DNA from: Eledone cirrhosa | Lineage: Eukaryota | Assembly (NCBI GenBank): GCA_964016885.1 | Contig: OZ024766.1 | Span: 16,554,001-16,618,000 of the forward strand | DNA: 64,000 nt | Direction: 5' to 3' | Part shown: positions 3,301 to 37,172 of the stretch, in pieces | How the letters are laid out: every line of letters starts with the position of its first letter | How positions within the stretch are numbered: the first letter of the stretch is position 1 | Made by a program: the position numbers and the translations under genes | Notes under the pieces: model-generated | Seen by the model: only the letters and a program-made list of their open reading frames with translations | Databases searched by the model: none | What the model was told of the DNA's origin: nothing

Positions 3301-5082
3301 TTATGGTCTCTTACCTGTATGGGTATATTTGTGTTTAGTTAAACTACTTAATTGAGAGAATGATTTACCACAGATATCACAGCGATATGGCTTCTCTACT
3401 GTATGTATACGTTTGTGTCTAGTTAAGGTACCACTTTCAGAGAATGATTTACCACAGATATCACAGTGATATGGGTTCTCTCCTGTATGTATACGTTTGT
3501 GGCTAGTTAAGGTACAACTTTGAAAGAATGATTTACCACAGATATGACAGTGATATGGGTTCTCTCCTGTATGTATACGTTTGTGGCTAGTTAAGGTACA
3601 ACTTTGAGAGAATGATTTACCACAGATATCACAGTGATATGGCTTGTCTCCTGTATGGGGACGTATGTGGCTAGTTAAGGGACCACTTAGAGAGAATGAT
3701 TTACCACAGATATCACAGCGATATGGCTTCTCTACTGTATGTATACGTTTGTGTCTAGTTAAGCTACCACTTTCAGAGAATGATTTACCACAGATATCAC
3801 AGTGATATGGCTTGTCTCCAGTATGGGTACGTATGTGGCTAGTTAAGTTACCACTTTCAGAGAATGTTTTACCACAGATATCACAGTGATATGGCTTATC
3901 ACCTGTATGGGTACGGATGTGACGAGTTAATATACTACTTCGAGAGAATGATTTACCACAGATATCACAGTGATATGGGTTCTCTCCTGTATGTATACGT
4001 TTGTGGCTAGTTAAGGTACAACTTTGAGAGAATGATTTACCACAGATATCACAGTGATATGGCTTGTCTCCTGTATGGGTACGTATGTGGCTAGTTAAGG
4101 GACCACTTAGAGAGAATGATTTACCACAGATATCACAGCGATATGGCTTCTCTACTGTATGTATACGTTTGTGTCTAGTTAAGCTACCACTTTCAGAGAA
4201 TGATTTACCACAGATATCACAGTGATATGGCTTGTCTCCAGTATGGGTACGTATGTGGCTAGTTAAGTTACCACTTTCAGAGAATGTTTTACCACAGATA
4301 TCACAGTGATATGGCTTCTCTCCTGTATGGGTACGTTTGTGGCTAGTTAAGCCAGGACTTTGAGAGAATGATTTACCACAGATATCACAGTGATATGGCT
4401 TCTCTCCTGTATGTATACGTTTGTGGCTAGTTAAGTTACCACTTTCAGAGAATGATTTCCCACAGATATCACAGTGATATGGGTTCTCTCCTGTATGTAT
4501 ACGTTTGTGGCTAGTTAAGGTACAACTTTGAGAGAATGATTTACCACAGATATCACAGTGATATGGGTTCTCTCCTGTATGTATATGTTTGTGGCTAGTT
4601 AAGGTACAACTTTGAGAGAATGATTTACCACAGATATCACAGTGATATGGTTCGTCATCTGTATGGGTACGTATGTGAAAAGTTAATATACTACTTAGAG
4701 AGAATGATTTACCACAGATATCACAGCGATATGGCTTCTCACCTGTATGTGTCCGTTTGTGGCCAGTTAAGTGACTACTTTGAGAGAATGATTTACCACA
4801 GATATCACAGTGGTATGGCTTCTCTCCTGTATGGGTACGTATGTGACAAGTTAATTTACTCCTAACAGAGAATGATTTAACACAGATATCACAGTGGTAT
4901 GGCTTCTCTCCGGTATGTGTACGTTTGTGGCTTGTTAAATTACCCTTAACAAAGAATGATTTACCACAGACATCACAGTGAAATGGCTTCTCTCCTTTAT
5001 CCTTTGACATCTCTTCTGTAATAGCCATATCTTTAGACATTGTTTCACATTTAATCTTCTTTTCACTCAATATATTTTCCAT
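3301..5082 (-). CDS. C2H2 zinc-finger protein A1, 20 fingers
   Basis: 593 aa = 33-aa leader + 20x28-aa CxxC-x12-HxxxH fingers with TGEKP-type linkers. Confidence 0.95.
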
Positions 5083-5323
5083 AATAATTCTTCTTCCCTT
5101 GGCAGAATTTACAGATGTTATTCTTTAATATTTTTTATATTATAGTCCTAAAAAATATTTCTTCTGTTATATTTCCCTCAATTATGATCTCAGTTAATAT
5201 CTGAAATGATCAAACTTCTTTGTCATTGAAGTTGAGTTAAAATACAAAATATATCTCTCATATATACACCACACAGTGAAGAAAAGGAATTTTGTCTTTA
5301 AACTCAGTTCTGAGGAAATATAT

Positions 5324-5557
5324 CACAGTAATTCTGATTGATTTTTATAAACAGTGTTATATAAGTTCTGTTTAAAAAGTTTTAATCTTCAAATGATGAT
5401 AAATAGAGGTGATGTATCCAAGATTGAAAACAATAATTTTCACAGTAATTCTGATAGATTTATATAAACAGTGTTATATAAGTTCTGTTTAAAAAGTTTT
5501 AATCTTCAAATGATGATAAATAGAGGTGATGTATCCAAGATTGAAAATAATAATTTA
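5324..5557. repeat. 117-bp tandem duplication in putative 5' UTR, A-type units only
   Basis: cacagtaattctga at 5324 and 5441; also at ~25526-25759; single copy in B, C and D. Confidence 0.85.
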
Positions 5558-5713
5558 TCCTAATGTCATCTTATATTCTGAAATGAAAAAGAAACAGTAT
5601 GAGATAATAGAGAATACTTAAGAAGCAGAGATAGATTTAACAGTGGAAATTTTACATCTATAAACCCTGGAAACTTTTTATTGAAAAATCAAATTATTTT
5701 AGTTTTTAATTAG

Positions 5714-6090
5714 TTACAAGAAATCTTTCTCCACACCTGCAACCATGAGTGTATCTGGGGTTCTTTTCTCTTCAGAGAGATGGATCCTCATGAGGTGGAG
5801 AGAATACTTTGCTGATCTCCCAAACCCGATCACAACAGCATCTTCGGATGTACATGAGGTGAATCTGATAGCGGTGACTAATCTCTCGGGGGCTGAGGTC
5901 ACAAGAGCAATTAAAGAGCTCAAATGTGACCAACTCATGTGTGTCAGATGGACTGGGTCTCTGAAATGGCACTCGGGAGTGATAATCCCAATTTATAAAA
6001 AGGGAGACACGAGAGATTGTTCCAAATAGAGAGGGATCACCTTGTTAAGCCTCCCTGGTAAAGTATATGCTAAGTTTCTGGCAAAGTGAT
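5714..6090 (+). pseudogene. Decayed RTE-clade RT fragment
   Basis: RWREYF..EVTRAIKELK..VIIPIYKKGD.RDCSK*RGITLLSLPGKVYAK. Confidence 0.8.
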
Positions 6091-35300: not shown

Positions 35301-35397
35301 GCACCTCTCCATCTCACCTCTTGCACGCAGCACACATCCACCTGCCTTCTCTCCAGCATCTCCGCTATTTCAGCAGATCTACCTCTGAGAGTGCCAA
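32347..35397 (-). mobile_element. RTE-clade LINE with uninterrupted ORF, 5'-truncated
   Basis: Begins at (V)GTLRGRSAEIAEML; (TGA)n tail directly at the stop; inserted in cac(at)n. Confidence 0.95.
32366..35359 (-). CDS. LINE ORF: APE endonuclease, reverse transcriptase and PHD-like C4HC3 finger
   Basis: 997-aa open frame; FVDLEKAFD, HQGSVLSP, YADD; CSIC..CTQC..H..C..CSRC. Confidence 0.92.
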   Translation of the reverse strand: MLERRQVDVCCVQEVRWRGASARLVVGKRLSYKLFWVGKDDGLGGVGIFLAEKWINKTIEVVRVSNRIIKLRLVVGRRLLTIISVYAPQAGLGKDEKDCFYEQLLQTTTMTEDGDIVMLAGDFNGHVGQLQDGYTGVHGGHGYGSRNEEGVRLLEFCDASTLTICNTNFQKPANHLITYKSGEHISQIDFLLVRQRDRKIVSNTKAYPGEECTPQHRLVVSDISVSKRWNEPYRKVWRRKVWKLKDLSLKFKFRKALQDVYDEKEDDLETYDIDNNWKFLRDNLLKATDETCGWSRAPTRQRVTWWWNSSVDKAIRDKRLAWKAWNKGGSREEYTATKREARRQVYLARREAESRRFANVLRREDQRRAVFHIARQCVNANQDVVGDKCVRDDAGVLSVTNDQKKEAWKCHYERLMNVENEWEREKLPLVDPTEGPAIEIDEYRVQEAIREMKNGKAAGPSGIVAEMLKASGDVGTKLVARIINQAIYGGVIPKDWCSSILINCYKGKGDALERSNYRGIKLIDQVMKVAERILAQLIRERVKLDEMQFGFVPGKSTTDALFLVRQMQERFLEKNKPLYLAFVDLEKAFDRVPRSVIWWSLRKLGVEEWLVRTVQTLYRGTLSKVRVGMEFSEAFQIQVGVHQGSVLSPLLFIIVLQAITEEFKTGCPWELLYADDLALMAESVEELENKFRLWKQQLEARGLRVNLAKTKVLMSRKEDKTLIPSGKWPCSICRKGTGINSIKCTQCRSWVHKRCSGIAGKLTGREKYVCSRCTGKLDSRSRTDRHIFQMREGAIEVVDSFRYLGDQISMGGGCSEAIVSRIRTGWKKFRELLPLLTKKGFSLRTKGRLYDACVRSAMLHGSETWAATAEDMRRLERNEASMLRWMCSVNVRERPSINVLREKLCLRGIECSVRERRLRWYGHVMRMEDDRWVKKCQEMPVEGRRSRGRPRKTWAEMVRTDLRSLKLTVEMTRDRDEWRDAVLNKTRPTLASREKRT

Positions 35398-35624
35398 CAT
35401 ATATATATATATATATACAGTGTTTGTAAATTCTGTACCATACAGATTTGTCAGCACAAGTCTTGGTTACAACTTCTACAAATAAAATGAAAGGAGAATA
35501 ATTTCAGAACAAACAAGTTTTATTCAAGATATTAACAACATTGGTGGCACTATTTTGGGTGAATGACATAGTTTTTATCTTGTCTGATTGTGTTTGTGTT
35601 ACATTAAGTAACCTTATGTTGGTA

Positions 35625-36308
35625 CCACAACATTTAGAAAATGATTTATCACAGACATCACAATTATATGGTTCCTCTCCTGTATATGTTAGTGTGTAGG
35701 GAAGCCACAACATTTAGAGAAGGATTTACCACAGACATCACAGTGATATGGTTCCTCTCCTGTATATGTTAGTGTGTAGTGAAGCCACAACATTTAGAGA
35801 AAGATTTACTGCAGATATCACAATGATATGTTTCCTTTTCTCTAAATGTTAGTGCTGAGTGAAGTGACTGATTTAAGAGAATGATTTCTCACAGATATCA
35901 CAGTGATATGGTTTCTCTCCTGTATGTATATGTTTGTGTCTAGTTAAGCTCGCTTTTATAGATAACAATTTCCCCCAGATATCACAGTGATATGGCTTTT
36001 CTCCAGTATATATTTATGTTTGTATGTAGTTAATGTAGCAATACAAGAGAATAATTTCTCCACAATATCACAGTGGTATGGCTTCTCACTCATATGAATG
36101 TATTTGTGTCTAATTAATTTACAATTTTGAGACAATGAGATATGACTTTGTTATGGTTTGTTACCTGTATGGGTATATTTGTGTTTAGTTAGACTACTTA
36201 ATTGAGAGAATAATTTACCACAGATATCAGTGGTATGGCGTGTCTCCTGTATGGATACGTAAGTGTTTAGTTAAGTGACTACTTTGAGAGAATGATTTAC
36301 CACAGATA
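35625..36308 (-). repeat. Degenerate ZF repeats 3' of ZF-B2
   Basis: Matches 15425-16108. Confidence 0.85.
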
Positions 36309-37172
36309 TCAGTGATGTGGCTTCTCACCTGTATGGATACGTAAGTGTTGAGTTAAGGGACTACTTTGAGAGAATGATTTACCACAGATATCACAGCGAT
36401 ATGGCTTCTCACCTGTATGGATACGTAAGTGCTCAGTTAAGTAACTTCTTCGAGAGAATGATTTACCACAGATATCACAGTGATATGGTTTGTCTCCTGT
36501 ATGTATACGTATGTGGCTAGTTAAGGTACCACTATCAGAGAATGATTTACTACAGATATCACAGTGATATGGCTTGTCTCCTGTATGTATACGTTTGTGG
36601 CTAGTTAAGGTACTACTATCAGAGAATGATTTACCACAGATATCACAGTGATATGGCTTCTCTCCTGTATGGGTACGTTTGTGGCTAGTTAAGTGACCAC
36701 TTTGAGAGAATGATTTACCACAGATATCACAGTGATATGGCTTCTCTCCTGAATGGGTACGTTTGTGGCTAGTTAAACTAACATTATTAAAGAATGATTT
36801 ACCACAGATATCACAGTTATAAGGCTTGTCTCCTGTATGAGTACGTATGTGAGAAGTTAAATTACTACTAAAAGAGAATGATTTACCACAGATATCACAG
36901 TGATAAGGCTTGTCTCCTGTATGTGTACGTTTGTGGCTAGTTAAGTTACTACTTACAGAGAATGATTTACCACAGATATCACAGTGATATGGTTTGTCAC
37001 CTGTATGGGTACGTATGTGACAAATTAATATACGACTTAGAGAGAATGATTTACCACAGACATCACAGTGATATGGCTTCTCTCCTCTATCCTTTGACAT
37101 CTCTTCTGTGATAGCCATATCTTTAGACATTGTTTCACATTTAATCTTCTTTTCACTTAATTTATTTTCCAT
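36309..37172 (-). CDS. C2H2 zinc-finger protein B2, 9 fingers, frameshift-truncated
   Basis: 287 aa; equals B1 minus the ERGTLTRH finger. Confidence 0.92.

Follow-up and report, generated by a model that had tools for sequence, protein, structure and literature searches.

A stretch of 64,000 nucleotides of Eledone cirrhosa DNA (contig OZ024766.1, positions 16,554,001 to 16,618,000 of the forward strand; assembly GCA_964016885.1), here called the window, contains six C2H2 zinc-finger (ZF) frames, all on the minus strand, which are designated A1, B1, A2, B2, C, and D. Each of the six genes encodes a 33-amino-acid N-terminal peptide followed by 9 to 20 fingers, the 84-bp fingers form a tandem array within a single exon, and at least five tandem C2H2 fingers with TGEKP-type linkers are present in 6/6 genes. 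With six genes in 64 kb and flanks that are ~94 to 100% alike, the locus is a tandem cluster of close paralogs. It is built from units of ~10 kb, longer where a long interspersed nuclear element (LINE) has inserted, with one finger gene each; besides the finger exon, a unit has a satellite with an 82-bp period, a spacer, an array of pseudo-fingers with a broken frame, and an upstream region that carries repeats of 115 and 77 bp. The coding exon of A1 (3301 to 5082) has 20 fingers (array at 3304 to 4983) and that of A2 (24007 to 25284) has 14 (24010 to 25185), whereas B1 (16109 to 17056) has 10 (16118 to 16957) and B2 (36309 to 37172) has 9 (36318 to 37073). The finger table thus bears out the counts given in an earlier note made from the letters of this stretch (the original prediction), which had proposed that finger arrays change faster than anything else in a very young duplication. 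The older paralog C (47477 to 49081) has 17 intact fingers and one broken terminal finger, in which 9 bp were lost within the knuckle (47477 to 47555); the older paralog D (57886 to 58911) has 11 fingers and is nearest to B. In gene B, two further fingers follow finger 10 but are out of frame owing to 2-bp deletions (15950 to 16117).

Copy 1 of a two-gene duplication begins left of the window and is visible at 1 to 18083, and the matching part of copy 2 lies at 20707 to 38199, with an offset of 20,706 that drops to 20,116. This agrees with the predicted 20.7-kb period, but the partner is visible for only 18.1 kb. As had been stated, the lengths of the two (TA)n tracts and of the 82-, 115-, 117-, and 77-bp repeats do not differ between the copies (the window edge clips the first 82-bp array), and the LINE indeed differs at exactly four sites (three substitutions and one 1-bp indel). 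Outside a non-coding patch described below, the copies are ~0.1% different and include an identical run of 4.3 kb. To the right of 18083, they diverge like older paralogs (19 mismatches in 652 bp and 29 in 744 bp, versus 1 in 1,027 bp to the left). The last shared variant of B type is at 18060 and the first differences are at 18084 and 18130, which places the inferred duplication junction at 18060 to 18130, ~1 kb upstream of the B1 start codon. This junction would be a non-allelic, unequal crossover, by which two genes were duplicated, between the upstream regions of B and of a paralog beyond the left edge of the window. Since such a crossover usually joins two homologs, two haplotypes would come to lie side by side; the age of the duplication therefore does not necessarily follow from the 0.1% difference, and the arrays may represent alleles that are older. 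The distal upstream DNA of B1 (18084 to 20706) is of another paralog type than that of B2 and lacks a 1.67-kb LINE piece found at 39363 to 41030, so that the promoters or 5' exons of B1 and B2 may differ. It contains a piece resembling a short interspersed nuclear element (18273 to 18449), copies of which lie upstream of each gene; with a summed contig depth in the millions, this is a very abundant repeat.

Sequencing reads were compared, as assembled contigs only, for the non-repeat stretch that includes the junction (16975 to 18742), using 4 of 23 listed runs, the four coming from at most two samples (best share among the 23, 0.49; no RNA run was among those listed). The contigs contained pieces of the family at a depth of ~300 to 740. 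The junction was bridged by none of the 32 contig pieces listed (41,467 others existed), and at 18563, 18599, and 18664 the letter not found in B1 stood alone among the contigs listed; contigs drop rare variants. With this comparison covering the junction stretch only, the reality of the arrays and of the junction is argued from evidence internal to the sequence.

A2 finger 2 (25018 to 25101) occupies the place of A1 fingers 2 to 8 (4331 to 4902), as predicted; A2 retains 42 to 67 nucleotides of a QSCT-type finger, and 504 bp are gone. The statement that A2 is not a clean deletion was right for a single 504-bp deletion, a model that we rejected because it leaves eight mismatches, but not for two in-register deletions, which fit cleanly: in a deletion search, A2 equaled A1 minus 252 plus 252 bp or minus 336 plus 168 bp, with four point differences remaining. 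A single deletion combined with a conversion of 5 bp, for which any QSCT finger could be the donor, is equivalent. B2 equals B1 minus 84 bp with one mismatch, the break lies inside 11 bp of microhomology, and the hybrid finger 7 (36486 to 36569) retains the helix of B1 finger 7. Each of the three array indels spans a whole number of 84-bp units, ends in shared sequence, and leaves hybrid junction fingers that stay in frame and reuse existing helices; these 3/3 cases support recombination between fingers as a cause of altered array length. At the corresponding place, D agrees with B1 in having three fingers, as opposed to two in B2, and therefore B2 likely lost one. A2 lacks four unique fingerprints of A1 (VSKC, QSHG, LSIF, and QPGS), with RSIC as the only gain, and has probably lost six fingers. 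An older internal duplication of 420 bp (five fingers; 3556 to 4317) is present in both copies of gene A, and gains thus occur as well.

A2 does carry the DRG, HSG, and LTCH variants, which had been described as found in other fingers or genes. For DRG, conversion fails as an explanation: the A2 state at position 4997 is common to three other genes in a context of 17 to 25 bp and is ancestral, and A1, whose state is unique, is the changed copy. LTCH is a CGT-to-TGT change, i.e., a CpG transition, and HSG is ambiguous, as either a point change or a conversion tract no longer than 18 bp could explain it. When single changes are placed at random in these fingers, 34.9% yield an allele that the pool of 51 fingers already contains, and the variants read as converted are weak evidence. 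The generation of new binding specificities, also proposed, is thin for this pair: a single contact residue is altered (R to C at +6), the helices of the hybrids already existed, and the length changes in both genes resemble losses.

The two copies differ at 36 sites (29 substitutions and 7 indels) over 18,083 bp, and 16 of these (13 substitutions and 3 indels) fall into one non-coding patch of 848 bp at 5723 to 6570 (partner, 25925 to 26769), corresponding to 18.9 differences per kb. The arrays have six differences (2.4/kb), the 82-bp satellite has three (2.2/kb), and the LINE has four (1.3/kb); two are in the N-terminal coding parts (198 bp), one is in the pseudo-fingers, and four are elsewhere. 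Clustering like that of the patch was seen in 0 of 200,000 uniform simulations. Arrays are therefore not the fastest-changing part of the duplication, since the patch is eight times denser. The patch sits 0.6 to 1.5 kb upstream of gene A, and the copies are ~2% apart there but otherwise 99.9% identical. Seven of its differences are private to A1, six are private to A2, and three are common with other paralogs. Conversion by B, C, or D was rejected as its source, since the changes are mostly private and both copies retain an A-type deletion inside it; a promoter or CpG island was not supported, with an observed/expected CpG ratio of 0.38, the same as that of the window. The patch probably represents either a tract of conversion or a segment of an older allele. 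The junction lies in the zone upstream of B that is homologous to the patch zone, which hints at a region locally prone to exchange.

Length events in finger arrays and non-coding repeats of the aligned copies leaned toward the fingers without reaching significance. In the young pair, three (or two) length events were found in 2,520 bp of fingers versus none in 3,907 bp of non-coding repeats (p = 0.06 for three events and 0.15 for two; Fisher test per unit, 0.058 to 0.20). The excess of substitutions in arrays had a p value of 0.28, and the tests for an array excess on the event table ranged from 0.06 to 0.39. The older units, whose unique flanks are ~1 to 6% apart, vary in all repeats: the 82-bp satellite has 6.9 to 20.9 copies, the 115-bp repeat has 2.3 to 7.9, and the genes have 9 to 20 fingers. 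With an excess that is not significant and non-coding repeats that vary as much among older paralogs, the claim that exchange is targeted to the coding arrays was not upheld. Because satellite, 115-bp, and pseudo-finger arrays vary too and the D pseudo-array took in a coding-type finger, exchange is, as far as the repeats of the window indicate, a property of the whole repetitive unit, including patch, satellites, and pseudo-fingers.

The non-coding, frame-broken pseudo-finger array behind the A1 stop codon (2382 to 3300, minus strand) has units of ~80 bp, and its counterparts lie at 15425 to 16108, 23088 to 24006, 35625 to 36308, 46803 to 47476, and 57132 to 57885. These repeats derive from a finger and are ~93% uniform, and their unit numbers differ between arrays; the array of D carries the inserted 84-bp finger at ~57326 to 57409. 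The 82-bp satellite forms one array per unit with 7 to 21 copies, and its plus strand is strongly A and G skewed. After a first array clipped by the window edge (1 to 833), it has 6.9 copies at 8458 to 9022 and at 28657 to 29221, 11.0 at 20646 to 21539, ~17 at 42547 to 43965, 20.9 at 52595 to 54308, and at least 14.3 at 62828 to 64000. The 2015 work of Albertin is said to have linked a tandem repeat of 70 to 90 bp to octopus C2H2 loci, which would match this satellite.

At the DNA level, the fingers are 85 to 87.5% alike and share identical in-register stretches of 18 to 237 bp. Finger identity in A1, B1, C, and D is 0.850 to 0.869 within genes versus 0.851 to 0.863 between genes, and since the two are equal, the six genes would draw on one finger pool. 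Among 55 distinct fingers, the block coding for the knuckle has a diversity of 0.04, with third positions near zero, whereas the first and second positions of the codons for helix residues -1, 3, and 6 have a diversity of 0.52. Twelve non-coding pseudo-finger units are, in contrast, evenly uniform (0.10 at the helix equivalent and 0.09 in the scaffold). The proportion of nonsynonymous differences (pN) at -1, 3, and 6 is 2.9 times the proportion of synonymous differences (pS) over all codons (bootstrap, 2.6 to 3.3), but pS at the three codons is as high as pN (0.51 versus 0.53), and we therefore rejected the ratio of nonsynonymous to synonymous rates (dN/dS) as a proof of selection. According to published work, dN/dS is unreliable among converting fingers (PMC5519329). 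Diversifying selection on the helix is nevertheless likely. A and C have proximal flanks that are 97 to 99% identical, yet their arrays are non-collinear. Six genes with one finger pool, a near-invariant scaffold, and diverse recognition helices are the notable feature of the window.

The original prediction had called the system PRDM9-like. This holds in part for the behavior of the DNA, but domains of PRDM9 were not found and gene-specific homogenization was not seen. The likeness to PRDM9 (PMC5519329) comprises an 84-bp tandem coding repeat, hybrid fingers, a homogenized scaffold, and peaks of diversity at contact residues. The differences begin with the domains: in Pfam, the best 25 of 30 rows obtained with A1 and the best 25 of 48 obtained with B1 were ZF families only, without SET, KRAB, or SSXRD, and these domains were also absent from 64/64 minus-strand frames of at least 45 amino acids in the stretches upstream of A1, B2, and part of C. 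No Pfam match was obtained for 63 of these frames; the remaining one is a reverse transcriptase. Each ATG is preceded by an in-frame stop at 14 codons and by a likely splice acceptor at ~120 nucleotides. The 33-amino-acid peptide (4984 to 5082 and five paralogous N termini) is conserved and contains IKCE, had no Pfam match, and in a profile search of 1.84 billion representatives gave one weak match (E = 4e-4) to a protein without fingers. IKCE fits the SUMO-site pattern (hydrophobic-K-x-E), and the peptide could be a minimal repression signal. The first 62 residues of B1 gave generic ZF clusters only in the ESM Atlas, and an exact look-up of the six ZF proteins in a protein collection gave 0/6. 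Homolog searches with B2 returned generic ZF proteins, none of the matches listed exceeding 72% identity; among the 120 matches listed was one protein of Octopus bimaculoides at 54%.

Baker's statistic (the share of diversity in four columns, which were identified from the human row of their supplement) was 0.34 to 0.40, all six genes being alike. As background, we took 168 proteins of other animals from the homolog search, 148 of which have an array of at least four fingers, and their median was 0.256. The values for PRDM9 are 0.687 in human and 0.910 in mouse, and 3 of 41 complete PRDM9 values in Table 1 of Baker are at 0.398 or lower (PMC5519329). On this statistic, the window arrays are intermediate between generic arrays and human or mouse PRDM9. 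Finger DNA differs by 0.125 to 0.15 in the window versus 0.079 in human and 0.034 in mouse PRDM9. Gene-specific concerted evolution, i.e., fingers more alike within than between genes, was not found; homogenization is family-wide here, there are many paralogs, and linker positions are variable too. The genes are partly like PRDM9 in the behavior of their DNA but are not members of the PRDM9 family.

Closer relatives are found among poly-ZF families. Emerson and Thomas (PMC2604467) report equal finger numbers in only 1 of 24 mammalian lineage-specific expansions, with mostly whole fingers deleted or duplicated, and describe positive selection at helix contact residues as standard in such families. 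In mouse clusters, fingers have been duplicated, deleted, and repeated in blocks, and close paralogs are least conserved in the ZF segment (Kauzlaric 2017; PMC5363842); in a young cluster, fingerprint arrays were mostly strain specific and multigene segmental duplications occurred (Bruno 2025; PMC12575710). The window shares with young mammalian KRAB-ZF clusters the tandem arrangement, multigene segmental duplication, whole-finger gain and loss, finger-block repeats, diversity at -1, 3, and 6, decayed fingers behind the stop codon, and insertions of transposable elements. It differs in that neither KRAB nor another effector was found, the N-terminal peptide showing no match to a conserved effector domain such as those of KRAB-ZF and FiNZ-ZF proteins, and in that fingers are 85 to 87.5% alike both within and between genes. 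Effector-less clustered ZF genes are known from Hemiptera (ZF271-like/APEZ; Panfilio 2019; PMC6444547); these, too, are invertebrate, ZF-only genes with 3 to 45 fingers, clusters of 4 to 8, high turnover, and differing arrays, but the lineage is independent and exon structure varies there, whereas the 10-kb unit is uniform here. The expansions of coleoids (PMC9068888, PMC12513265, PMC10547256) likewise consist of clustered, lineage-expanded multifinger genes. Those studies count and place genes, and neither finger-level turnover nor a shared pool is described in the passages compared; in octopus, transposable elements are enriched for predicted ZF motifs (Wells 2023; PMC10547256). Among the papers listed by a search reaching few subscription papers, none was on finger-level turnover in cephalopods and none related PRDM9 to octopus. 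With whole-finger gain and loss among young paralogs and diversity at -1, 3, and 6, the window genes are a lineage-specific poly-zinc-finger cluster evolving by known finger gain and loss.

The window is probably explained by ordinary in-register recombination between 84-bp fingers in a tandem ZF cluster and not by a process aimed at the arrays. After the crossover that duplicated two genes, in-register exchange would have changed the finger numbers, with one finger lost from B2 and probably six from A2, and it would also have hit the non-coding DNA of the unit, such as patch, satellites, and pseudo-fingers. Frequent exchange in the near-invariant knuckle block, together with selection on -1, 3, and 6, would yield a uniform scaffold with varied helices. 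By analogy with the literature, the proteins are likely sequence-specific DNA binders that most plausibly repress transposable elements. Several observations speak against this explanation. Treating the patch as a single event makes the arrays the large compartment with the highest density of differences (p = 0.06). The raw direction of the length events favors faster arrays, both genes have changed, and p = 0.06 is near 0.05; satellites are without length events though they are more uniform (0.92 to 0.94 identity) than fingers. Substitutions in whole open reading frames (5 in 2,130 bp versus 11 in 14,517 bp) gave p = 0.044 in one of seven tests; four of the five alter an amino acid and one is silent, and all four in gene A are nonsynonymous. 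Moreover, human KRAB-ZF fingers are highly diverse within a gene (PMC2604467), and the window arrays are more homogenized than most, since only 17 of the 148 background arrays reach 0.33 and 4 reach 0.40. A rival explanation is a hypervariable coding minisatellite, in which selection for new specificities, as in an arms race, makes finger arrangements arise or persist much faster than changes in adjacent repeats, with many alleles segregating as in PRDM9. The three length events in fingers against none in non-coding repeats, the helix diversity of 0.52 against 0.04 in the scaffold with neutral pseudo-fingers evenly uniform, the 2.9-fold pN, and the non-collinear arrays of A and C between nearly identical flanks all favor it, but we regard it as unlikely: the excess is not significant in the young pair, pS at the same codons matches pN in a setting in which dN/dS is unreliable (PMC5519329), and positive selection at contact residues is expected of poly-ZF families anyway (PMC2604467). 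Losses in both genes, one altered contact residue, and decayed terminal fingers in B and C fit drift and birth-and-death. There is some small chance that the cluster as a whole is an effector-less coding minisatellite, in which the invariant knuckle block serves as homology anchor, genes exchange helices internally and with one another out of a common pool, and, with selection favoring new targets, finger-number alleles are as abundant in populations as those of PRDM9. If so, two alleles of each gene would have become fixed next to each other in the young duplication.

An assembly product, in which two haplotypes were joined end to end or the consensus of the arrays is wrong, could account for copies that are ~0.1% apart outside the patch and share the 4.3-kb identical run. 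We consider it very unlikely, because the window contains no N, the six long ZF frames and a LINE frame of 1,045 amino acids are open, the indels comprise exactly whole 84-bp units and show microhomology, and the join lies in DNA that is ~3% different between paralogs and would be a poor overlap for an assembler. Private changes are found on both copies, and stitched haplotypes would still mean real finger alleles. Hardly credible is a PRDM9-related or programmed system, with recombination steered toward the arrays or with proteins that determine where meiotic hotspots lie. The minisatellite-like 84-bp arrays with hybrid fingers would agree with it, as would the existence of PRDM9 paralogs outside vertebrates (10.64898/2026.09.07.749791). 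Against it stand the lack of SET, KRAB, and SSXRD in the frames and the 64 upstream frames, the stop codon 14 codons before the ATG, a statistic of 0.34 to 0.40 that the 41 complete PRDM9 values exceed with only 3 exceptions, and the exchange of non-coding DNA; Baker 2017 (PMC5519329) ties hotspot function to the full domain set.

The LINE inserted in the duplicated units encodes endonuclease, reverse transcriptase, and PHD on the minus strand. Copy 1 (12167 to 15303) has a 1-bp frameshift near 14538, and in copy 2 (32366 to 35503) the frame of 1,045 amino acids is open. Its homologs are mostly unnamed relatives with 46 to 58% identity among the matches listed, and it may be a recently active member of an undescribed family.

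The window is a worked example of how a C2H2 repertoire turns over: crossover copies units, and in-register exchange trims and reshuffles fingers. Such turnover has already been published for mammals and insects; the lineage concerned here has more than a thousand of these genes, for which an effector domain is not known. If polymorphism of the arrays proved far above that of neighboring repeats, the arrays would be a source of rapid regulatory or anti-transposon variation.

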